Assembly (NCBI GenBank): GCA_000002445.1
Contig: CP000066.1
Coordinates: 544,001-608,000 of the forward strand
Length of the DNA: 64,000 nucleotides
Source of the DNA: Trypanosoma brucei
Taxonomy: Eukaryota
Direction of reading: 5' to 3'
In this document: in pieces, positions 4,257-59,855 of the stretch
How positions within the stretch are numbered: the first letter of the stretch is position 1
How the letters are laid out: every line of letters begins with the position of its first letter
The notes under the pieces: generated by a model
The model's input: the letters and a program-made list of their open reading frames with translations, nothing else
The model's database searches: none
What the model was told of the DNA's origin: nothing
Position numbers and translations under genes: made by a program

Positions 4257-5039
4257 CTACAAACCGAGTTCAGTGGGATCCCTCCCTGCCTTCTCAGCCA
4301 ATTCTCTTTTGTATTCTTCAAACATTTTCTCCATTCGATGTGATTCATTCACCACTAACAACACGAACATAAACCAAATGTAAGCGAGGGCCACCACCTG
4401 AGCCATGTCGCCCCACTTGTTCAGCTTATCAACAGTGTCGGTATCTCCAACAACGGCAGTCGTGTGATCCGTTACGTTAAACCCGAGACTCTGCAACACA
4501 TTCACTGCGTCAGGTACATAAGCCGGTGGAAGGATAAACATCAGTAAGCGGTTGTCTTCCGACGGGTGTGTGACGTACCTTTCTCCCACGATGTTAAGCA
4601 CGCGCCTCCCAACCCAGCTGTGAAACCTTTCACGATACATATTCGGTGTCAGTAGCAAAAGCAGCATTGGGGTTCGAATTGGCTGTTCGCGTGAGATAAA
4701 TTCACGCCGTGTGAGGTTAAGATCTATACAGTCGGGAAACCCCATGGGGTGAAAGTACGCGTAACCGGGGAAGATGTTTCGGCGCAAAAGAATGCGCGCG
4801 AGGTAAACGTGCGTCGGATTAAATATGTCGTTACTAACGTACAATTTGTGCTCCTTTGCGTAGGGTTGATAGACCCACTCAGAGTAATATGAATCTAAGG
4901 CATACCGCGGTGCAGGAACAATAACTATCTGTTGCTTTCGAAACGGGTGCGTCACCTTCAATACGCTTGCTAGGTATTTTTTTTCCTCAGTGCGAATGAT
5001 ATCCTGCACGCGCCACTTCTTCTTCGCGAAGAGTGACAT
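4257..5039 (-). CDS. Hypothetical protein with a C-terminal hydrophobic segment (AQVVALAYIWFMFVLLVV).
   Basis: Track ORF 4257..5093 starts on TTG. The first ATG is at 5039 (MSLFAKKKWRV...). It runs in the same direction as the minus-strand gene block. Confidence 0.45.
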   Translation of the reverse strand: MSLFAKKKWRVQDIIRTEEKKYLASVLKVTHPFRKQQIVIVPAPRYALDSYYSEWVYQPYAKEHKLYVSNDIFNPTHVYLARILLRRNIFPGYAYFHPMGFPDCIDLNLTRREFISREQPIRTPMLLLLLTPNMYRERFHSWVGRRVLNIVGERYVTHPSEDNRLLMFILPPAYVPDAVNVLQSLGFNVTDHTTAVVGDTDTVDKLNKWGDMAQVVALAYIWFMFVLLVVNESHRMEKMFEEYKRELAEKAGRDPTELGL

Positions 5040-5644
5040 GCTCTCTGGAGAAGATTCTGTCAGTTGGGCGGCACCCGGTGACTTGAGGCTCAACTGCCAC
5101 TAATACTGAACAGTTATCGCCTTCTCTCGCCTCTGCCCGCACCGCACGGTTCTCACGCTTCCGGTCCTGCGCGGGATATAAAAACACAGTTGACAGGAAT
5201 AACAATGAACGTGATAAAAAGAGACATCGATAATGAGATGTTGCCGAATGGACCGCCACAAACAAAGGAGAGGGTAAAATAACATAACAACACTTTGATT
5301 CCATTTTTTTTTTTTTAACGGTTAGCGCAAAAGAAAACGATAGCACTCTTCAACGACGAAAAAGAAAACCTTGGGTTACGAGAGCTCCATTGAACGCGCC
5401 CGGACACATTGTAGTAAGATAAACCAACATTTTTAAAGGTAAAAAGAAGACAAAACGGCGCCCCAACGTTGAAGATTCGTTCGACTACTCCGGAGTAACA
5501 GCTAAAGAAACATTTCACACACAAATACACGCGCGAAAGCAGGCATTCCTATGCACTGGTAACTGATAGTGACAAAACTATGTTCGTACCGCCATAAAGC
5601 ACAGCAATGTTTCAAGGGAACGAAAAGACGAAGTAGAATGCGAC

Positions 5645-6051: not shown

Positions 6052-7899
6052 TCAACAACCGCCCTCAAGCGCACAAAGTTCAGCTGTGTGGCGCTCCACG
6101 TACGCAAGTGCGCAACTGTCATTTACTCGACGTAAATGTGGAGTGAGGGCATCACGCACAGTGCGGTGGTAATCATTCACCAACCGCACCTCGTCAGCAG
6201 TTAGCATCGACACATCAATGAGATCTCGGCACAATGGCACCATCGTGAGTGCCTCAAACGTGAGAAACCCCTCTTGGCTGTGACGTGTCGGTGCCCGCAC
6301 GATTACCTCCAAGTTTTCAATACGTATGCCGTACTTTCCTGCTTTATAGTAACCAGGCTCATTAGACATAATCATTCCAGCAGCGAGAGTTGCTTCTGTT
6401 GGAGTGGGTCGATATCCAATACCCTGAGGTCCCTCGTGTACGTTAAGGAAAGACCCGACGCCATGACCCGTACCGTGGGCGTAGTCTAAACCATACCGCC
6501 AAAGGTGGACGCGCGCGAGTGCATCGAGCCGATGACCAGTCGTGCCTGTTGGCCACACCGCGTTGTGGAGCGCTAAGTGACCTTTCAAAACAAGTGTATA
6601 AGCCTGGCGCTCCTCATCAGAGGGTGGATTGAAACAAACTGTACGAGTTACATCAGTCGTACCATCAAGGTATTGAGCACCACTGTCCACAAGATAGAGT
6701 TGGTCCGGTACGATGGTAGCAGATCCCTCCTTGGGAGGGGTGTAGTGCACAACAGCACCATTTGGCCCAACGGAGGAAATAGTGGGGAAACTGAGCTGCA
6801 CAAAGTGCTCCTGCTCGCGGCGGAAACCCTCGACAACATCAGCACCGCTACACTCGGTGATAGTGGTGTCACCCTTCACAACAATCATGTCGTGTAACCA
6901 CGCGAGGTACCGCGTAAGTGCTACGCCGTCCCGTACGTGACAGCGGCGGAACCCTTCAATCTCAACGGCATTCTTTACTGCTTTAAGTCTCTGCGCTGGG
7001 CCGCATTTCACCCGATTCACTTTCATTTTGCATGACTCGAGCAGGGAGTACAGTCGTTGGCTCGTCTGGTATTCGTCGACCAGAAAGGCGGTGCCAGCGG
7101 GGAGCGCGCGGACATAATCCTCCAGCGCCTCATACGGGTGGAGACTAACTGAGACGACACTGCGGCCGGATTGGGTCAATTCCGCCTCGACAGGTGAAGA
7201 TACCTTCGCTGAATCCACAAAGAGCGCCACGGTCGGGTCGGGGGCGGAACGTACAAGAGCATAAGAATAAAATACCGGATTGTACGGAACGTCACTTCCA
7301 CGTAAGTTCGTGAGCCACGCTACCTCGTCAAGCGCAGAAAGGATCATGGCCTCACATTTTTGTCCCTTGAGCTCCTCCACAAGTGCCATCACCTTCTCCT
7401 CACGAGTTTGCCCACAGAACTGCTCAGGTCGGATGCTTAACATTTCCGCTTTCGCATCTGAGTTCTGCGGCATAAGTGGTCGAACAATCTCGGGGATAGG
7501 AACCAAATTAATAGCCTTCCGGCGCCTCTCCCACTCCGCGACAGTGGCAAGGTTATCATTCATTCCCACCAGCAAGTCTGGTTGAAGGTTAAGTCGGACA
7601 AAATCTTCCAGTGAGGGCACCCCCGGATGACCATCACGCATCAGTTGCCACTCCGGGTACAAACAATGGCCCGCCTCAAGCCAATAACGTCCATCCGTCC
7701 ATAAATACGCCTCCTCCATTGTTATGAGACACGTGCCCGCGCTTCCGTTGAAATTTGTCAAGAAACCACGGCACTTGTAACTGTCCATGACGTATTCGCT
7801 GTTGTGCGGATCGCTGGAGGGGACAATAAGAGCATTGATGGAGTGTAACTTCATGGCCTCACGCACGCGAGAAAGAATCTTGGCACTGTTGGTCGACAT
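6052..7899 (-). CDS. Xaa-Pro aminopeptidase (aminopeptidase P, M24B family).
   Basis: 615 aa, ATG start. M24 signature HGTGHGVGSFLNVHEGPQGIG. N-terminal creatinase-like domain plus C-terminal pita-bread fold (VDSGAQYLDGTTDVTRT). Confidence 0.9.
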   Translation of the reverse strand: MSTNSAKILSRVREAMKLHSINALIVPSSDPHNSEYVMDSYKCRGFLTNFNGSAGTCLITMEEAYLWTDGRYWLEAGHCLYPEWQLMRDGHPGVPSLEDFVRLNLQPDLLVGMNDNLATVAEWERRRKAINLVPIPEIVRPLMPQNSDAKAEMLSIRPEQFCGQTREEKVMALVEELKGQKCEAMILSALDEVAWLTNLRGSDVPYNPVFYSYALVRSAPDPTVALFVDSAKVSSPVEAELTQSGRSVVSVSLHPYEALEDYVRALPAGTAFLVDEYQTSQRLYSLLESCKMKVNRVKCGPAQRLKAVKNAVEIEGFRRCHVRDGVALTRYLAWLHDMIVVKGDTTITECSGADVVEGFRREQEHFVQLSFPTISSVGPNGAVVHYTPPKEGSATIVPDQLYLVDSGAQYLDGTTDVTRTVCFNPPSDEERQAYTLVLKGHLALHNAVWPTGTTGHRLDALARVHLWRYGLDYAHGTGHGVGSFLNVHEGPQGIGYRPTPTEATLAAGMIMSNEPGYYKAGKYGIRIENLEVIVRAPTRHSQEGFLTFEALTMVPLCRDLIDVSMLTADEVRLVNDYHRTVRDALTPHLRRVNDSCALAYVERHTAELCALEGGC

Positions 7900-10429: not shown

Positions 10430-11520
10430 CATTAGAAAACAAAAAGAGGGGGAAAGGAGGAGAAATGACACCAACGGATAAAAATAATGTTTTAGCGTCC
10501 GTTCGGCAATTGGTCACACCACTCGTTAGGTGGCGCCCCATCACTTGCTTTTGTTTCTTTTCCTTTTTGGTATTGTTTTACTTTGCATACTGCATTATTC
10601 TTTTTGTTGATTTTATATCATTCCTCTTTATATATCATGTTGTTGTTGCCTTTTTTTATCACCCTTACTGGGATCTTTTTCCCCTTTTTTTTGTTTCAAC
10701 TTTACCTATTCTCTGCTTCTCCTTTAAGCATAATCTTGGCGGACTCGTCCGGTTTGATTTACAGTTAAGAACAGAAAAGAGAGAACATATATATATACAA
10801 AAATGTTATAATCATGATTATCATTTGGCACTTCCACCGGAAGCAGAAATCTCAAACCATATCCTTCAAAAACTCCCCTCCCCTTTGTCTTATTTGGCAT
10901 CGGTTTCCCTTCTTTTTATTTCTTTTTGGGTACCCCCCCCCCCGCCTCCATTCGGTTTTTTTTTCTTTTTCATGTAGAAAAAAAAAAAGTTGTTGCTGCC
11001 GCCGCTTAAGGGTGCCTCCGACATTTCACACAATAAACAATCAAACGAACAAAAAAAAAAGAGTTTGTTGGCCGCCCTCGCATCCGCCGAAACAAACACA
11101 AAAAAAGGGCATCACGAACGTACGCCACGCTAAACATAAAATGAAAAATTAAACAAAAAAACACAAAGATACTTCCGCTGTAAAACTTCCGGAACTTTCA
11201 ACAACTCAGTGGCCTCAGCTCTCACCGTTATTTTCCCGTTTAATACTTTCCATTTCTCCCCGCTCCCACAACACATGTCATCTTCATCTCCATCTTATCC
11301 TCATCCCATCACTCAGTATAGTTATGCATACATGTACGCATTTGCTCTCCATGCTGCGGGAAGGAAAAGAAAAGAAAAGGAAATGAAAGGAAAGGAAAGG
11401 AAATAAAATAAAGCCCTAAAATCATGCGAAGGGTCGAAAGGGACGAAAGGGGGAAAGGGGGGTGGTTAAGCTCAAAGACACATCGCTGGTACACTGCGGA
11501 AGCACAACGCACAAATACAC

Positions 11521-15216: not shown

Positions 15217-16388
15217 GTATAATGAGCCTTTGGATAATCCCCTTCACAATGCACCTCAGTCTAAAAGTGTGTAGCAATAGCGAAGCGCATAATAAATCGG
15301 AGCGAGAAGAAATCCTTTTGCAGTGCCCCAACGGAGCACCTTGTGGAAGGGACCTTCCCAAAAGTAGTGCCGTAGTGGAGTACATCTTTGGCACGTTTGG
15401 ATGCAATGTTACCAGTTAAATAACACTCGTGCACAATACAACGCATCAACAGCATCCGATAGTGGCATAGTAAAACGGGGGAAACATTGCAAATGGTCAT
15501 TCCCCACACGGCAGCAGCAAACTCACAGAAGTGTATGTACAATAAAGAGATGAGGCGGGGAGACGATATACGACACGAACAACAAAGGAAGCAACAATCA
15601 TTTCGACGACACCCACCGCTCCAAACCCATGAGCATCCGTTACACCTCACTCCGGTAACTTATGCGGTTCGTTGTTTTCGCGCGCAAACCCATTCGGAAG
15701 GCCTTTGGCACTACATCTATTGCTCGATCGCGTTTCTCCCTCCACATGCGGCTTCACAGGCTTCTCAAAAACAGTCTCCCCTGAGGGACGGCTGCAGTAG
15801 CTTCCCCATCGCACGGTCCGCTGTTGCACATAACCCGTCGACCCCTTCTGCAAAGCCTTCGGTGGCCTGACCGTCCAAGGTGAAAGTGACAGTGCCACGC
15901 AACGCATCAGTCAATCCAAAAAAGAAAAATGGGACGCAACCAAAAAAAAAAAAGATGGCGTTCCGGTGGGATGCGAGCCGTGCAATTTGGTTTGCACAGT
16001 CGCAAGCTATGGTCCGTAACTCGTACTATATTCTTCCCTCCTCCTCTCCCGGGAAACTCTTGGTATCCCGTCCAAATAAATCAACAAAGACACCACAACA
16101 AGGCGAAATAGAAGAAAACAATACACAACAAAAATGTCTCTTGCGTTCTCTGCTCTCTCAGGTTAAACAACAACCAAAGGTGAATGGTAAACGAGTTTAA
16201 GGTACATATACCCGCACTGTTCTTTTTTTTTTTAAAAAAAAGGTAAATCAATATTACAACGTACGGCTATAATCCAAGTGGGGGAAAGCACAGCAACCGA
16301 CTGATAAGCATGTGCGTGGGGCGACCTAACAACAATCACTTCGTGACGGAGCAGCACATCAAAAACATTCCTCGAAGGGAACCTTAGT

Positions 16389-18629: not shown

Positions 18630-19493
18630 GCGTGAAAACGAGAAAAGCACACCCTGCAGACCCCTTTTCCGCCACCTCAAATGCTGGGAACATTTCAGCC
18701 CGTTTATTAGGCAATGTTCACGATTTAAAAAATAAAAAAAGAAAAGAGGCGGAATTTGCATTGGTAATGAAGCAGAAAAATCGATGGGCAGAGTTGACGC
18801 TGGAAGGGAAGGAAACGGAAAAGGCTTTAGAAAGTTGGATCGCAGCAGCACCACCACCTTTTTTTTAACAAACATTGCAAATGAATCGTGGAACCGCTGC
18901 GGCGAAGTTTTTGTCCACTCTCTATCGTTATTGCGCTCAGTTTAAACAATCAGGACAGAGAACGCCCCCCCCCAAAAAAAAAAATGAAGAAAAAAACGGG
19001 GAAACGAATAGAGGGAAAGAAAAATCAACTACAACAGGCAGCGGACGCACAAAAAAAACGTTAGAAATGACGCACTGCACAACAATACCAGCCCTCCCAC
19101 TCTTCACGTATCTTTTCGCCCCTAAAGCATTTAGCCTTTGCGCGACACACCTCGTGAGACACGTTGTTGTTGACCTGTGGCGTAGCAAATGAAGCGAAAT
19201 AAGCCAAATTTTCTAGCTTTTATCAAGCAGATACGGCTTAAAACTAAAGTGGTGTGAGCATATGTTAAAAGGATTTCCTCTTTTTTTTTGGTTCTGTTTT
19301 TTTTTTTTGAAATAAAAAAAAATCGACCAAAGGGGGGAAGAACCGACCACATTGGTCTTCTAGCGAAACCTGGTGGCACCGTCTACGAAAACGAGCTTGA
19401 CTGGTCGGGAGGAGAAAGAGGGGGAAACTATAAATTTTATGTAATCCAAATCCCCTGCATCGAATATCGTCCCCCCACACACACACCTCACCT

Positions 19494-36061: not shown

Positions 36062-36930
36062 GGCTATAAGAAGCTAGTTTACCTTTATTTAAAAAAATCC
36101 CTGGCGCACGCCAGACGTTAAGTGGAATTCAAAAGTATCAAGTACAGCCACATACGCGTGCTTCACAGCACCATCACCATAAATTGAGAATAAAGAATAG
36201 TGTCGGGAACAGAAATAAACTTTAAGTGGTCGTTCATTTATTTCCTTCCGATTCTGACGCAGGCGAAATACTCATTTCTTTTTTTCGGTAAATGCCCTTC
36301 CCTTTTTAGACAAAAAAAAACATCTCACTCAACGAGGAGTCGAACAGACGCATCACGTATCGTATAGAAATGTGCAAAGAAACATAATCGCTATTTACTC
36401 CCGCTTACTCAGAGAGTGAAGAACTGCACAGCGAAGAAGAGTGGACCGCGTGCTGACAGTCCCACCACAGAAAACAATCCTATGCTGAGCTCTTTTTGTT
36501 GTTGCCGTTGAGGACTTGTAGCGGTAACATGACTTGAAATTGTGAATCAGTGTGTGTACGTCGCTACGTACATTTAGCACTGACGGATCATGAGTTCCCT
36601 CATCCAAGACGTGTCTCGCCCCTCCTCCATGTACAACCACGGTTTCCCACTCTCCCCCACACCCGTCCTTCTTTACCAAACGTTCCCCTTCCTCGATTTT
36701 TCTTTAACCCCACAAACCCAAGGGAAAAGAAAAAACGCTGCTCACACGTGCCGTTCATTGCTTTATTTGCTTTAATGCCCCCCCCCTTTTACCTTCAACA
36801 AAACATACTCCGTCTCGCTCACATTGCCCGAACCCTTAGACGTCACAAGGGGGGAAATTGTACCAAATTTCCCCTCAAGTTCCTACTGTATAAACAAATA
36901 AACGGAAAAGAAAAAAAGCGATATTGCGCT

Positions 36931-40706: not shown

Positions 40707-41393
40707 TCATGAACTCTGCTTCATCCCACTATAATATGTCCTCCCAAAATACCCCTTTGGCCGAGCTTCGTAACGTGGTGCCAAGTTTTGTAGTGGCTGC
40801 ATCTCCATCTCTTTGTATGGACTACGCTTCACATCTTCCGCTGTTATTTCGTCCACAGTCCAATCCCTGGGTCTCTCATCGTCCCTGTGTAGCAAATGGT
40901 CGTTCTGTTCAATTGCGTCAATTTGTGATTGCTCTGTTACACCATATTCTCCTAACGTCTTTTGTGGGTCCAATTCTTTCCCATCGATAGCAAGATGAAA
41001 GGACGAAACACAAAGATAGGGAGACTGATTCTCAACGAGAACAAGATCCTTTACTTGTGCAATAGTACTGTCTTTCGGAGCCATAATCTGAACAACCTGC
41101 ATACGCTGCTCCCAGCCAGATGTAACCCAGGTAAATATTTTGAACCTTATTCTTAATGGAATTAGGTGCTGCACCCTCGGGTCGTCAGTTACTGCCCGCC
41201 AATAGTGCCTGTCAGTATCATGAAGAATGGACTCTAAGCTCCCCGAATAAAAGCGCGTATCTCCAGGTGTCGCTGCTCGGATGGGTCCAGGATATGTCGT
41301 GGACTCTTCAAACCGTTTTCGGGCTTCAAACGCCTCCTGCTGGTAGTGTCCAAGAAGTCCTGCCTTCAACAGAGAAAGGGCGCCGCGCCTCAT
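40707..41393 (-). CDS. Hypothetical protein with a presequence-like N-terminus and an internal ubiquitin-like fold candidate. It is the first gene of the minus-strand block.
   Basis: 228 aa, ATG start. MRRGALSLLKAGLLGHY is presequence-like. MQVVQIMAPKDSTIAQVKDLVLVENQ...IDGKELDPQKTLGEYGV resembles a ubiquitin-like beta-grasp. Confidence 0.4.
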   Translation of the reverse strand: MRRGALSLLKAGLLGHYQQEAFEARKRFEESTTYPGPIRAATPGDTRFYSGSLESILHDTDRHYWRAVTDDPRVQHLIPLRIRFKIFTWVTSGWEQRMQVVQIMAPKDSTIAQVKDLVLVENQSPYLCVSSFHLAIDGKELDPQKTLGEYGVTEQSQIDAIEQNDHLLHRDDERPRDWTVDEITAEDVKRSPYKEMEMQPLQNLAPRYEARPKGYFGRTYYSGMKQSS

Positions 41394-41504
41394 CTGCCGG
41401 CAGACAGCCCGATAACAAACTTTTGTGAAAGCGAGTGAAAATTAAAAAAGGCAGGTTTTTTCTTTTTAATGAGACACAGCGGTATATTGCAAGGTGTAAG
41501 CAAT

Positions 41505-41521
41505 CCCCTACCCCCCCCCCC
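41505..41521. repeat. Poly-C run (poly-G on the minus strand) at the minus-strand edge of the strand-switch region
   Basis: cccctaccccccccccc. Confidence 0.9.
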
Positions 41522-43743
41522 ATCTTAACAGGTGGAGTGCGCAGCTATATACACGCACACATATGTGCATATCCATGCCCGAAAAAGGCAAATAATCCTA
41601 GAGTCGCGGGCGCGCACGAAGAAACAGGTCTGGAAGCTTCCAAAACAACGTGCCAGTAGACAGCATACAATAGAGCAACAAAACGATAGCAGACAACTCT
41701 ACACGTTGTCTTCAAGGAAGGTTTCCACACTTCTGCAAAGCAGACAAGAGGAAATCGAAAGTGACAGGACCGAAAAGGGTTAATAAACCCAAAACACCAG
41801 TACAGCCAGCCCACCCACTGTCCGCCAAAACGGGACCACTGTCTAATGAAATTTAGACATCTGCAGACCCTCAGAAAACTACGGCCCCAAATTCCTCAGT
41901 AGTAGATGCGACCTTTTATCCCCGAAATAAATTTAAAAAGTGGAGGATAGCGCATACAATACTTACCATTTCCCCCAGCCAAACTTCCCGATGCGAAAGT
42001 CTGAGGACCCGCAGGGAACGGCACTGCACTCTGTCCTCTTTCTCAAATTGAAGGACGGAACAAGATGTTAGTAGACAGAATGATAGTTGTCCGGTTCTGT
42101 GGCTTTTCGGGAAACCGATAAATGACATTATTGAAGGAATGGCAGGATGATTTGAAAAATCGACCGTAAAAAAAAAAGAAAGAAACTACTGAGACATCTG
42201 GCGTTCGAAAGCTGGCCATCTCGGAACGAACGCAAGGCAGTGCGACTATACAGATGTCGGGGTGCTGCCACTAAACCTAAGAAACGCTACAGCATCTGCG
42301 AAAAGAAAGGGAATGAAAAGGCCAGAACTGTTAGCCCTCATGCCAAAGGTTGCGGTTGCCCCTAGAAACATCTTAGCTTAGGGGGGCCAAGCTTCGGTAC
42401 TGCACTCAACCGCCATCAGCCACAGCTGCATATGTTTTGTTGGTTATTTAAGCCTAGTGGTGCGTGTCGCAAAGCCCTTTTAGGCTTCCAGCTTCCATTG
42501 CCTGGGATATGCCCCTTATTTCTGAGAAGCATGGCGCGAGTCTGGTAACATTCCCAAATAATCAACAACGGCAAGACGACGTGCACAACACCCGTCTGCT
42601 GAGCGAGAGTGTGATTATAATAAAGAGGGCGGGCCAAATAACTCTGCTTGTGGAATCGCCCCCATGGAAGCCTCCTAGGGTGCCAGCGTCCCTCCAAGGT
42701 CGACCCGTTCTACGTTTGTTGTTTTTTTTTTCCTGGTTGGCAGCCGTGATTTTAGTTGCGTTTTCACATACACTGAACGGCGGCAGTGCAAGTGCAATGG
42801 CCAAGCGTCCGGATACACACAACTCTGTTTAATTACTTACAATCACCGTTCATGCAATACCGTTTTGTTTTTTTTTTGTGGGGAGAGGGTAACGGCCAAC
42901 AGTGACTCGAAGACGCAGCGCATGTTTGCACTTGCCTATCACAGTTTGCGCGTGTTTTGGTGCTGCCCGCGACACTCCATTTGCCTTGTCCGACAGTTCC
43001 TTGAACAAACTAGGCGTTTGGGGGCGAGATATTCTCAGGACGGTCCCTTCTAGCATGCAAGATTGCCCGTCCAAGCTTGACGCCGCGCTGGTGCAGCTTT
43101 CCCCTCCCACGCGCGCCGCCATTTCCGGGGTTTCAATCCTGTAGGTGGAGGTGACCTTCCGCTACACTCGTCCAAGAGTCCGGTGCAAATCTGAGCGGGT
43201 TTCTGTGGGGCCGTTGGGCCCGCCGCCGCTATGTTTGGTTCACTGCCGGGAGGAAAGTGCCCCCCTCCCCTGTTGCGGGTGTTCGGTGGCCTTCGGGTCA
43301 GTAGTGCGAACTTCCCACCCGGGCTTTGGCGTGTTCCCCTGTTGTTGTCTTGACCGGGGAGGTTACGCTCCTCTGTGTGCGTGCGGTTGCCATTCCAATC
43401 TTTGTTTGAAGGCGAAGATCTGCCGCGGCCACTTCGCGATCCGCTGCTGCAATGGAAGTGAGAGTGGAAGATATTCTTAGCAATGATGTGGTCTTTCGCT
43501 GCCCCTCTTAGTACCACCTTCCTATTATGTTTTTTTTACCGCTATCAAAGACACGTTCTTCAATTGTCACGTCACATACGAAACTGTGTTTTTCGTGCGC
43601 GTGCACACGCACGCATGTAAAAGCTGAGTTTGCTGACATTGTAATGCATACACTTTTTTATTACACTATTTCCAGACGATGCATCCCAAAATAGAAACGT
43701 TTGATCGCGTGGCTGGTTAGTTGTTGATTGGGGCGATTTTGTG

Positions 43744-43857
43744 CTTCACGACGCTTCTTGTTATTTTTTATTTGTATGGCTATTGTGTGATTCTTTCTCA
43801 CTCTTTTTCCCTTTTTTTCTTTGTTTTCCCTGTCACTTATTCTTACGAACAGGGGGT
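43744..43857 (+). promoter_or_regulatory. Polypyrimidine tract plus AG trans-splice acceptor upstream of the first plus-strand gene.
   Basis: About 100 nt of T/C-rich sequence (ttcttgttattttttatttg...ctttttttctttgttttccctgtcacttattcttacgaacag) ending in AG at 43849-50, 8 nt before the ATG at 43858. Confidence 0.6.
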
Positions 43858-45183
43858 ATGTCCGCCATAGAACAGGCTAACTTTCGCCTACAAGCAGGTT
43901 CCGAGTTAGTGGTTGTAGTGCCCTACAGCACCGAGCGTTGTTCCGCTACCTTAAAAGTGGTGTCTGGGGCCGGTGGCTTGGAGCCGCGGGTGGATGTGCT
44001 TGGCGCCCCAGTTATTGTAGATGTATCGTACAATCTTCCTCCTGGAATCACCTTTACAGTCTTTACATGGAGCAACGCTAACATTCGAATTGAAGGATCA
44101 AAACAACTCGTTCAGAACTGTTTTCGCTCAACAACCCATCCATTTGCCCGTTCCATTGTTGAGTACCACTGCTTAATTCATAACGCTCGTCTACTTGCTG
44201 ACAAACAGGGTTTGTTTGGACCGATGGTCCTTATATGCGGGCAAAATGACACTGAGAAGCATGCAATATCTAGGACTCTTAGCAGCTATGCCGCAAGAAC
44301 AGGATGGGCCCCTCAATTTGTTGATCTTGATTGTGGGATGGGTCAGTTATTAAGCACTCCGGGAACTGTTGCAGCATGTGTAAGTGAGTGTCCGATGACA
44401 TTAGACGAGGATACCAGCACTGGTCCCCTTTCGGTTGCTTTTTTCGTAGGCTCGACCGAACCGCAGGTAAAAGGTGTTTCTGGGGAGTGGAACATGTTTG
44501 CCCCTTATGTTCATTATTGCCGTTTGCTACTATCATGTGTAAGTGAGCGAATAGCAAGACACAAGGGCGGGGCTGGAGGATCTAGTGGTGCAATCATCGT
44601 GCTGCCTGAACTGAGAGGGAGCAATGGACTGCTTTTCGTCGTGGATATCATTCGTCAGTTCAACATTTCGCATATTCTATGCGTGGGTGACGATTTCCTC
44701 TTTTGTGGACTCCACGAGAGGATACCGAGGTTGCGTGAACATATGGCTTCGCGTGTTGGTGGGGATATTCGTCTTGATAAACTATCGGGATCGCCTCACT
44801 TTCCTTCGCCAGACACTCGAACCGAACGTCTTTCCTCCATAATGGAAAGATATTTTTTTGGTGGTGGTGCAGTCGATCTCCAACCTTCAGAAATTAATAG
44901 GCGGTATGCAAGCATTGAGATACTTCTCTTAAAGGAAGCTAACGGACAGGCGGTAGTTTCCCCAGTAGAGCAGGATGCACTAGAGGGAGTTGTTGGGTGC
45001 GTGGGGTCCTTGTTTGAGTCATCCGCCATTCATGAGAAAGGTGCTCTTTCTCTTGCCCCATTTGCTCTCGCGAGGGTGCAGGGGATCGACGCCAATGGAG
45101 TCAGCCTTCTTGTGAGCACGCACTCGGCAATTCCAGAGAGGCTAACCATGATCGTGGGAGCTTTCCGGTGGGTAACAAGTTAA
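43858..45183 (+). CDS. Clp1/Grc3-family protein (mRNA cleavage-polyadenylation factor / polynucleotide 5'-kinase-like) with a degenerate Walker A motif.
   Basis: VDLDCGMGQ matches the conserved Clp1 DLDxGQ motif. An N-terminal beta-rich domain is followed by a central P-loop-like fold, but the Walker A position reads GQNDTEKH instead of GxxxxGKS/T. The track ORF begins at GTG 43741 inside the polypyrimidine tract, so I trimmed it to the ATG at 43858 (MSAIEQ...). Confidence 0.45.
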   Translation: MSAIEQANFRLQAGSELVVVVPYSTERCSATLKVVSGAGGLEPRVDVLGAPVIVDVSYNLPPGITFTVFTWSNANIRIEGSKQLVQNCFRSTTHPFARSIVEYHCLIHNARLLADKQGLFGPMVLICGQNDTEKHAISRTLSSYAARTGWAPQFVDLDCGMGQLLSTPGTVAACVSECPMTLDEDTSTGPLSVAFFVGSTEPQVKGVSGEWNMFAPYVHYCRLLLSCVSERIARHKGGAGGSSGAIIVLPELRGSNGLLFVVDIIRQFNISHILCVGDDFLFCGLHERIPRLREHMASRVGGDIRLDKLSGSPHFPSPDTRTERLSSIMERYFFGGGAVDLQPSEINRRYASIEILLLKEANGQAVVSPVEQDALEGVVGCVGSLFESSAIHEKGALSLAPFALARVQGIDANGVSLLVSTHSAIPERLTMIVGAFRWVTS

Positions 45184-59532: not shown

Positions 59533-59855
59533 AGGCGGTTCTCTCTTAAGAGCATGAGGTCCTCGGTTTTGATCCCGTACAATATCCTAGTTTGTTTGTT
59601 GTTATTGTTCGTTTGTTTGTTTTACGTTTGTCTGTTCTGTTTGCTGTCTATTTTGTATAATTTTTACTATATTGTGCCACTTTCATTTTTGTTATCTTTC
59701 TCTCCCACGTACCTCCCCTCTCCCTACTCCCATGGAGCGGTGCACCGCATTTTGTGTGAATTTATCACATATGTTCGCTCCCACAGGTACATGTTCATCT
59801 GCGTATATTTTTCTTCCTTTTCCCTCGCCTTTGTACTTCGTGGAGCGAGTTAAGG

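Follow-up and report, generated by a model that had tools for sequence, protein, structure and literature searches.

Mirrored GT-richness in a divergent Pol II start region of Trypanosoma brucei chromosome 3 is probably the ordinary makeup of transcribed non-coding DNA

Gene Content and Processing Signals of the Divergent Gap

The 64-kb window of Trypanosoma brucei DNA analyzed here lies on chromosome 3 (window coordinate + 544,000 = Tb927_03_v4 coordinate; GC ~48%), and our subject is its 2.46-kb gap at 41394-43857 (3.8% of the window), a divergent strand-switch region flanked by Tb927.3.2260 (minus strand) and Tb927.3.2270 (plus strand). This gap is a bidirectional RNA polymerase II (Pol II) transcription start region already catalogued by Kolev et al. 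2010 (PMC2936537), whose Table S14, based on 5′-triphosphate RNA-seq, gives Tb927.3.2260→1510 (minus) and Tb927.3.2270→2490 (plus) as ‘Divergent’ units and lists no internal start site in either array. The original prediction for this DNA, made from the letters alone, had read mirrored G+T-rich (GT-rich) tracts in the gap as bidirectional, sequence-encoded Pol II promoters. Our results indicate instead that this mirrored GT-richness is simply how transcribed non-coding DNA in these arrays is composed on its sense strand, rather than a discrete promoter signal.

The start codons of Tb927.3.2250/.2260/.2270/.2280 in Table S12 of Kolev et al. 2010 (chr3 584513, 585393, 587858 and 589443) and the splice sites of that study match the window at a constant offset of 544,000, and the locus is therefore the Tb927.3.2260/Tb927.3.2270 strand-switch region. 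Across the window, the mapped splice sites at 41419, 42295 and 43853 each fall behind an AG that is preceded by a pyrimidine tract. That the gap is the only place in 64 kb where coding orientation flips, as the original prediction had it, is confirmed by the open reading frame (ORF) map, in which the long ORFs keep to the minus strand through 40707-41393 and to the plus strand from 43858 onward, and by a cumulative skew curve with a single V shape (see below).

The first coding gene of the minus array, Tb927.3.2260 (40707-41393, minus), encodes a 228-aa ubiquitin-like-domain protein (Pfam ubiquitin domain, E 1.2e-6). Its 5′ untranslated region (UTR) spans 26 nt according to Table S12 (41394-41419), and is preceded on the minus strand by the trans-splice acceptor AG at 41420-41421 (cctgccttttttaattttcactcgctttcacaaaAG followed by tttgtt) and by a polypyrimidine tract at about 41425-41455. 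The splice sites listed for this gene (chr3 585416/585419) fall directly behind that AG, and site 585419 with a 26-nt 5′UTR places the ATG at 585393, i.e., at window position 41393. On the other side, Tb927.3.2270 (43858-45183, plus), the first coding gene of the plus array, encodes a Clp1-like polyribonucleotide 5′-hydroxyl kinase (Pfam CLP1_N and CLP1_P; orthologues named Clp1), and its processing signals at 43741-43857 on the plus strand comprise a polypyrimidine tract (about 43741-43850), an acceptor AG (43851-43852) and a 5-nt 5′UTR, in agreement with the published splice site at 587853 and its 5-nt 5′UTR. Farther out, one side carries BRO1 and succinyl-CoA ligase, and the other carries Sec1, zuotin and ParcG. 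The window DNA is 99.4% identical to T. equiperdum and 98.8% identical to chromosome 3 of T. b. gambiense, with the Clp1 protein encoded as an exact copy by the T. equiperdum contig and 99.5% identical in T. b. gambiense chromosome 3. In the literature searched, the identifiers Tb927.3.2260 and Tb927.3.2270 are mentioned nowhere outside the supplementary tables of Kolev et al. 2010, and the supplements of the SPARC paper have no entry for this locus.

Processed RNAs Inside the Gap

Table S7 of Kolev et al. 2010 places two novel transcripts in the gap, and the novel transcripts of that study are stated to be trans-spliced and polyadenylated. The first, Tb3.NT.24 (41600-42295, minus; 586295→585600 in Table S7), is a low-abundance processed RNA of 695 nt, present at 0.48 RNA per cell and displaying no recognisable coding content, which contains one of the blocks flagged in the original prediction (41766-41830). 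Its splice site at 586295 is also found in Table S12 and is supported by the minus-strand sequence ccttttcattccctttcttttcgcAG followed by atg; the acceptor AG (42296-42297) and its polypyrimidine tract together span 42296-42322 on the minus strand (ggccttttcattccctttcttttcgcAG followed by atgctg). The second, Tb3.NT.25 (43291-43718, plus; 587291→587718 in Table S7), is a very low-abundance processed RNA of 427 nt (0.04 RNA per cell), which contains the flagged block 43290-43440. Its 5′ end has to be taken as approximate, since it is without an entry in the splice-site table and there is no AG immediately before 43291 (the nearest are at 43300-43301 and 43303-43304). The poly(A) sites of Tb3.NT.24 and Tb3.NT.25 precede the next splice site by 181 nt and 135 nt, respectively, a spacing that is as expected for coupled processing. 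Because the blocks 41766-41830 and 43290-43440 lie inside these two RNAs, they are downstream, not upstream, of the RNA 5′ ends. RNA folding gave no significant structure for either transcript (z-scores of -1.49 for Tb3.NT.24 and +0.32 for Tb3.NT.25).

Other kinds of content for the gap were considered and rejected. Scans for tRNAs and Rfam families across the window and the gap, including a permissive gap scan at E<=1, gave no matches, which rules out a small-RNA gene as the explanation of the gap. Repeat and tandem-repeat searches of the gap recovered only low-complexity matches to A runs and T runs; the mirror is compositional and a true inverted repeat behind it was rejected. ORFs of 58-155 aa in the gap, including those of Tb3.NT.24, have no Pfam matches. 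The annotation of T. b. gambiense includes a 107-aa hypothetical ORF in the gap (4650-4973 of the fetched locus, about window 42508-42832, plus strand) with no Pfam domain; a 1-nt insertion in T. equiperdum at window position 42721 would shift its frame, and it is probably not a gene. On these grounds, i.e., the missing Pfam matches and the frameshift, a hidden protein gene or retroelement remnant was likewise discarded.

The GT Mirror and the Flagged Blocks

The cumulative (G+T)-(A+C) curve of the window forms a single V with its 64-kb minimum at 42424 and a flat floor over ~42300-43200, and plus-strand GT is 0.34-0.41 over 41500-41999 and 0.50-0.63 over 42700-43499. The mirrored arrangement is thus real as a broad skew, but it does not extend to the G run: the C11 reported at 41511-41521 (G11 on the outgoing minus strand) is present at exactly that position, and the plus strand of the gap has no run of at least 8 G to mirror it.

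We compared the flagged blocks with equal-size non-coding windows inside both gene arrays, read on the sense strand. Two blocks had been singled out as AC-rich on the plus strand and hence GT-rich on the minus strand, and only one of them stands out: the sense GT of 0.738 in block 41766-41830 is reached by only 2.7% of such windows, but block 41520-41560 is ordinary, with a minus-strand GT of 0.585 and ~40% of the windows being at least as GT-rich. The plus-strand block 43290-43440, which had been called strongly GT-rich, does not merit that description, as its GT of 0.596 is matched or exceeded by ~33% of the windows. It is A-poor and GC-rich (GC 0.583, G-skew 0.02, T-skew 0.43) rather than skewed towards G over C, and is the right shoulder of a GC island at 43081-43330 (see below). 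When non-overlapping sense-strand blocks are counted, those meeting the threshold of 41766-41830 number 31 in the window, 4 of them in the gap (~3.4-fold over-represented), those meeting that of 43290-43440 number 125 (5 in the gap) and those meeting that of 41520-41560 number 718 (30 in the gap).

The gap as a whole has the same character: sense-strand GT is 0.567 in its left half and 0.557 in its right half, against 0.564 in the other non-coding DNA of the arrays and 0.524 in coding DNA. In the window at large, GT-richness peaks in ordinary intergenic DNA (e.g., 59592-59656, 16067-16131 and 11072-11171), and the most GT-rich stretch of the gap itself is the polypyrimidine region of Tb927.3.2270 (GT 0.76 over 43699-43798). 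The claim that promoters can be read here straight from the primary sequence therefore fails on specificity. Equally GT-rich blocks abound inside the arrays without a listed start site and, because ordinary intergenic DNA has the same composition, a GT criterion carries no specificity for promoters. Sense-strand GT-richness alone cannot locate promoters in trypanosome genomes, and there is no particular reason to credit the flagged blocks 41766-41830 and 43290-43440 with promoter function.

Published GT-Rich 10-Mers and the G11 Element

A published class of GT-rich elements allows a sharper comparison. Wedel et al. 2017 (PMC5579346) defined it by the 10-mers whose enrichment on the coding strand of start regions is six-fold or more, most of which are G runs, T runs and (GT)n and among which G10 heads their Dataset EV1 (132 coding vs 17 non-coding), and showed that synthetic GT-rich elements drive directional transcription and H2A.Z deposition. 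We scanned the whole window with all 157 listed 10-mers, both exactly and with at most one mismatch. There are 8 exact matches on the plus strand and 7 on the minus strand of the gap, none of them in blocks 41766-41830 and 43290-43440. The sense-strand density with one mismatch allowed is 37/kb in the gap, 51/kb in other non-coding array DNA and 8/kb in coding DNA; block 41766-41830 (15/kb) and block 43290-43440 (33/kb) both fall under that non-coding background, and 41511-41560, with its G11 and gtgtgcgtg, reaches 140/kb. In the gap, a coding-strand excess of these 10-mers over other non-coding DNA was found only in 41511-41560.

Among the flagged items, only the G11 run (41511-41521) with its TG-rich neighbor (gcacatatgtgtgcgtgtatatag, 41545-41568), jointly 41511-41570 on the minus strand, fits the GT/G-rich class by its sequence, the run providing two overlapping exact G10 matches. 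This element sits between the poly(A) site of Tb3.NT.24 and the splice site of Tb927.3.2260, and the run is also C11 on the plus strand of T. b. gambiense. Immediately ahead of the first minus-array mRNA, it may contribute additional initiation or directionality. All four G/C runs of at least 9 nt in the window (10933-10943, 18965-18973, 36778-36786 and 41511-41521) are C on the plus strand and lie within the minus array, i.e., they are G on its sense strand, and the plus array has none. Three of the four are internal to the minus array, and such runs are thus no peculiarity of the gap.

Variation within the T. brucei group bears on the same blocks. Across three genomes (the window, i.e., Tb927, T. 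equiperdum and T. b. gambiense), the gap diverges from the two other copies by 2.0-2.4%, as against 0.2-1.2% for coding DNA and at most 1.6% for most intergenic DNA, one 165-bp spacer reaching 4.85%. The variant sites are spread unevenly: the body of Tb3.NT.24 (41560-42160) has 2 in 600 bp, a coding-like level, about 50 fall in 42200-43450, a variable right-hand 1.25 kb that includes the GC island, and 11 fall within the 140 bp of 43288-43427, where the alleles of the window are more GT-rich than those common to T. equiperdum and T. b. gambiense. With these 11 variants in 140 bp, the flagged plus-strand block is more variable than any other part of the region, which speaks against a strong constraint on its sequence. 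The unevenness in general could reflect constraint, local mutation rate or haplotype mosaicism, and the three genomes, themselves mosaic, allow no firm reading.

These observations together weigh on the proposal that the flagged blocks 41520-41560 and 41766-41830 (minus) and 43290-43440 (plus) are sequence-encoded, orientation-dependent GT-rich promoters of both arrays. The class itself exists, given that T. brucei start regions are enriched in coding-strand GT/G-rich 10-mers at their 5′ ends and that synthetic elements of this kind act directionally (Wedel et al. 2017), the element at 41511-41570 matches it, and block 41766-41830 ranks within the top 2.7% of non-coding windows, its kind being over-represented in the gap (4/31). 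Against this, two of the blocks lack an exact 10-mer, have a one-mismatch density below background and lie in processed RNAs, on the downstream side of their mapped 5′ ends; the composition of 41520-41560 and 43290-43440 is unremarkable; the latter is rich in variants in a stretch where two other sequences of the T. brucei group are less GT-rich; and more GT-rich blocks occur inside the arrays, where Kolev et al. 2010 list no start site. We therefore regard promoters at these blocks as decidedly unlikely. What survives of the earlier claim of bidirectional Pol II promoters is the divergent start region itself (Kolev et al. 2010) and the G11 run, which matches the top-ranked 10-mer, but not the blocks 41766-41830 and 43290-43440.

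A GC Island and the Conservation of the Gap in Other Trypanosomatids

We observed that the most distinctive and positionally conserved sequence feature of the gap is one that the original prediction had not flagged, namely a non-coding GC-rich island at 43081-43330, which at 64.8% GC is the top 250-nt GC stretch of the 64-kb window in a GC scan and contains the top 150-nt stretch (43081-43230, 66% GC). The non-coding background has a GC of 43.4% +/- 4.6% with a maximum of 56.8%. The island adjoins the upstream side of the Tb3.NT.25 5′ end and overlaps it, and its CpG observed/expected ratio of 0.84 shows no enrichment.

The gene order BRO1←hypothetical←ubiquitin-like gene, Clp1→Sec1→zuotin→ParcG around the gap is retained in T. 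melophagium, T. rangeli, T. cruzi, T. theileri, Leptomonas seymouri and Leishmania infantum. The gap length varies from ~0.62-0.63 kb in T. melophagium and T. rangeli and 0.9-1.0 kb in T. cruzi and T. theileri to 1.4 kb in the two Leishmaniinae and 2.46 kb in T. brucei, where the surplus DNA, located largely to the minus side of the GC island, harbors the lineage-specific Tb3.NT.24. When the gap was compared by blastn with its orthologues in six species, nothing outside the T. brucei group was significantly similar, and 8-10-mers shared among orthologous gaps are at chance level except for pyrimidine-tract words, with no common motif. What the Trypanosoma gaps share is a layout, consisting of a minus-strand GT/pyrimidine-rich arm (0.66-0.74 in T. 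rangeli, T. melophagium and T. theileri), a GC island and a T-rich plus arm (0.60-0.72), which is clearest in the compact gaps of T. melophagium, T. rangeli and T. theileri. In each fetched locus, the window with the highest GC falls in the orthologous gap in T. b. gambiense (5181-5430), T. melophagium (7571-7830), T. rangeli (7561-7810), T. vivax (2546-2795) and T. theileri (gap 150-399, reverse-complemented), and these islands have 62-70% GC without sequence identity. The island of T. cruzi is weaker (rank 2 at 150 nt, and outranked by 10 windows at 250 nt), and GC-window ranking shows no island standing out in the gaps of Leptomonas and L. infantum, which have C runs (C9 twice in Leptomonas and C10 in L. 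infantum).

Several peculiarities of the individual sequences were recorded alongside. The divergent neighbor of Clp1 in T. vivax (CAEX01002004.1, 500-3969) is a type-I DnaJ gene and not the ubiquitin-like gene, which is on a separate 3.6-kb contig, and this is either a synteny break or a short-contig effect. The T. theileri gap has a tandem duplication of ~170 nt in its Clp1-side arm, with copies ~270 nt apart (about 529-700 and 796-970, reverse-complemented) that include a T31 run. Assemblies often break or carry Ns in this gap: T. equiperdum has Ns beside the G11 run (about window 41489-41510), T. cruzi has them at gap positions 573-581 in the GC-rich part, and the T. grayi contigs stop inside the gap, 190 nt upstream of Clp1 in one case and 56 nt upstream of the ubiquitin-like gene in the other, for which reason T. 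grayi was left out of the comparison.

Such a pattern of retained position without retained sequence speaks to the idea that initiation is set purely by chromatin (H2A.Z/H2B.V, H4K10ac, SPARC and similar) at an ancient array boundary, with no sequence element that matters and with the composition, including the GC island, as a by-product of transcription, processing signals and mutation bias. The absence of nucleotide conservation or a shared motif in orthologous gaps despite synteny from Trypanosoma to Leishmania would fit, as would the higher divergence of the gap than of coding DNA within the T. brucei group, the failure of Staneva et al. 2022 to find common motifs under CRD1/RPB1 peaks, and the similar activity of all start-region fragments assayed by Wedel et al. 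2017. However, inversion of start-region fragments cost them 3- to 5-fold of their activity and synthetic GT elements were directional in the latter study, sequence-specific 75-bp promoters are reported from Cordon-Obras et al. 2022 by papers that cite it, and the position of the GC island is kept in six Trypanosoma sequences without identity, which suggests selection on composition. An account by chromatin alone appears unlikely to us.

The converse idea gives the composition itself a role. Judging from the conserved position, the non-coding GC island of 150-250 bp (64-70% GC), flanked in the orthologous gaps by two pyrimidine-rich arms, and not the GT tracts, might be the landmark of the start region, serving as a CpG-island-like core of bidirectional initiation that is selected on composition only; the T. 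brucei lineage would then have lengthened the minus-side arm by ~1.5 kb and gained Tb3.NT.24 in the process. We put this forward tentatively, as a speculation that is clearly more likely to fail than to hold up.

A Predicted Central Initiation Zone

Between the 5′ ends of Tb3.NT.24 and Tb3.NT.25 lies a skew-neutral central zone (42330-43080; GT 0.526, G-skew -0.02), marked by the flat part of the cumulative skew, which we predict to be a zone of dispersed bidirectional initiation. RNAs spliced at 42295 must start above ~42322 and the precursors of Tb3.NT.25 at or below ~43291; therefore, at least part of the initiation takes place within the inner ~1 kb, and the mapped processed RNAs narrow the possible initiation zone of the locus to this extent. 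Exact matches to the 10-mers of Wedel et al. 2017 in the area of this zone are at 42719, 42863 and 42865 on the plus strand and at 42584 and 42412 on the minus strand. Two similar T-rich elements on the plus strand, 42711-42730 (TACGTTTGTTGTTTTTTTTT) and 42858-42877 (TACCGTTTTGTTTTTTTTTT), 147 nt apart (direct repeat D1), both contain exact 10-mers, and their T runs differ in length among the three T. brucei-group genomes.

Accommodating these features, the explanation that we favor, and consider quite probable as a whole, is that the gap is a bidirectional, dispersed Pol II start region, a kind that stands at the head of each divergent array pair in trypanosomatids, in which the GT mirror is generic and the flagged blocks are not discrete promoters. 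Pol II would start somewhere in the inner ~1 kb (42.33-43.33 kb), comprising the skew-neutral zone and the 65% GC island, and run outward both ways. The first processed product on each side would be a short, rare RNA without recognisable coding content (Tb3.NT.24 on the minus and Tb3.NT.25 on the plus strand), followed by the first mRNA, which codes for the ubiquitin-like protein on the minus and Clp1 on the plus strand, with the RNAs released by trans-splicing at polypyrimidine-AG sites and coupled polyadenylation. The GT mirror would then consist of the polypyrimidine tracts and a general bias of G over C and T over A, the sign of which changes with the direction of transcription. The GC island and the G11 run may each have a part in initiation.

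The gap could alternatively owe its architecture mainly to replication, as an ORC1/CDC6 site or an origin and not as a promoter, a suggestion in favor of which it can be said that 70% of T. brucei divergent strand-switch regions bind ORC1/CDC6 and 19/42 early origins center on such regions (Tiengwe et al. 2012). However, ORC binding coexists with start regions instead of replacing them, and the sense-strand skew flips with the direction of transcription and is explained in large part by processing signals. A primarily replicative origin of the architecture is accordingly highly unlikely.

Certain points weigh against a dispersed start region confined to the inner ~1 kb and devoid of a contribution from GT-richness. 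The position of 42.33-43.33 kb derives solely from the 5′ ends of the processed RNAs and is only as fine as these allow, and that of Tb3.NT.25 is not at a canonical AG and may be imprecise or a primary end. The mRNA of Tb927.3.2260 is present at 5.7 per cell vs 0.48 for Tb3.NT.24, a difference that could be explained by dispersed initiation farther downstream, e.g., between Tb3.NT.24 and Tb927.3.2260. The pattern of the GC island comes from one orthologous locus. Finally, the promoter activity in Wedel et al. 2017 (PMC5579346) is that of concatenated synthetic 10-mers and of large fragments, and moderate GT-richness could still contribute to promoter activity.

Relationship to Known Start Regions and Promoters

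How Pol II start sites are chosen in trypanosomes, which have very few recognisable promoters, is debated, with chromatin only, GT-rich dispersed elements and 75-bp core promoters as the contending models. The locus adds no new kind of element to this debate, being a catalogued start region, and offers in the conserved GC island a candidate landmark, if this proves general to other strand-switch regions. The divergent strand-switch/Pol II start regions of T. brucei were described by Kolev et al. 2010 and, reportedly, by Siegel et al. 2009. The gap is a member of these regions, with its diverging arrays, ‘Divergent’ listing and low-abundance RNAs near the start region, and there is no essential difference, although at 2.46 kb it is compact relative to the 5-10 kb described in an mBio 2024 paper. 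Enrichment of H2A.Z/H2B.V, H4K10ac and BDF3 is the general rule over such regions (Wedel et al. 2017; Kolev et al. 2010; Tiengwe et al. 2012).

The GT-rich dispersed promoters of Wedel et al. 2017 are resembled by the gap in its sense-strand G/T bias both ways, in the G11 and TG-rich stretch of the minus strand and in the T-rich elements of the plus strand with exact listed 10-mers at 42719-42874; unlike in that class, the density of the listed 10-mers in the gap does not exceed that of ordinary intergenic DNA, and two of the three flagged blocks hold none. The core promoters of Cordon-Obras et al. 2022 (Cell Rep), described in citing papers as 75-bp unidirectional elements under Pol II chromatin immunoprecipitation peaks, are modeled there as two opposed promoters between divergent arrays, which fits the two-armed layout of the gap. 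The likeness to this model, as cited elsewhere, is one of layout, whereas no motif is common to the orthologous gaps.

The strand-switch region of Leishmania major chromosome 1 is reported to combine bidirectional initiation with a short gap between divergent arrays (Martinez-Calvillo et al. 2003). It is a different locus on a different chromosome, and resembles the present one in the short divergent gap and in the C/G runs of the Leishmaniinae orthologous gaps. Turning to mammals, the island of the gap, known here from its composition at one locus, differs from CpG-island bidirectional promoters in that its CpG observed/expected ratio of 0.84 is not an enrichment, and is like them in being a discrete GC-rich island in AT-richer non-coding surroundings. 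Kolev et al. 2010 (PMC2936537) had already compared trypanosome start regions with mammalian CpG-island promoters, in both of which initiation is dispersed and divergent without a TATA-type motif.

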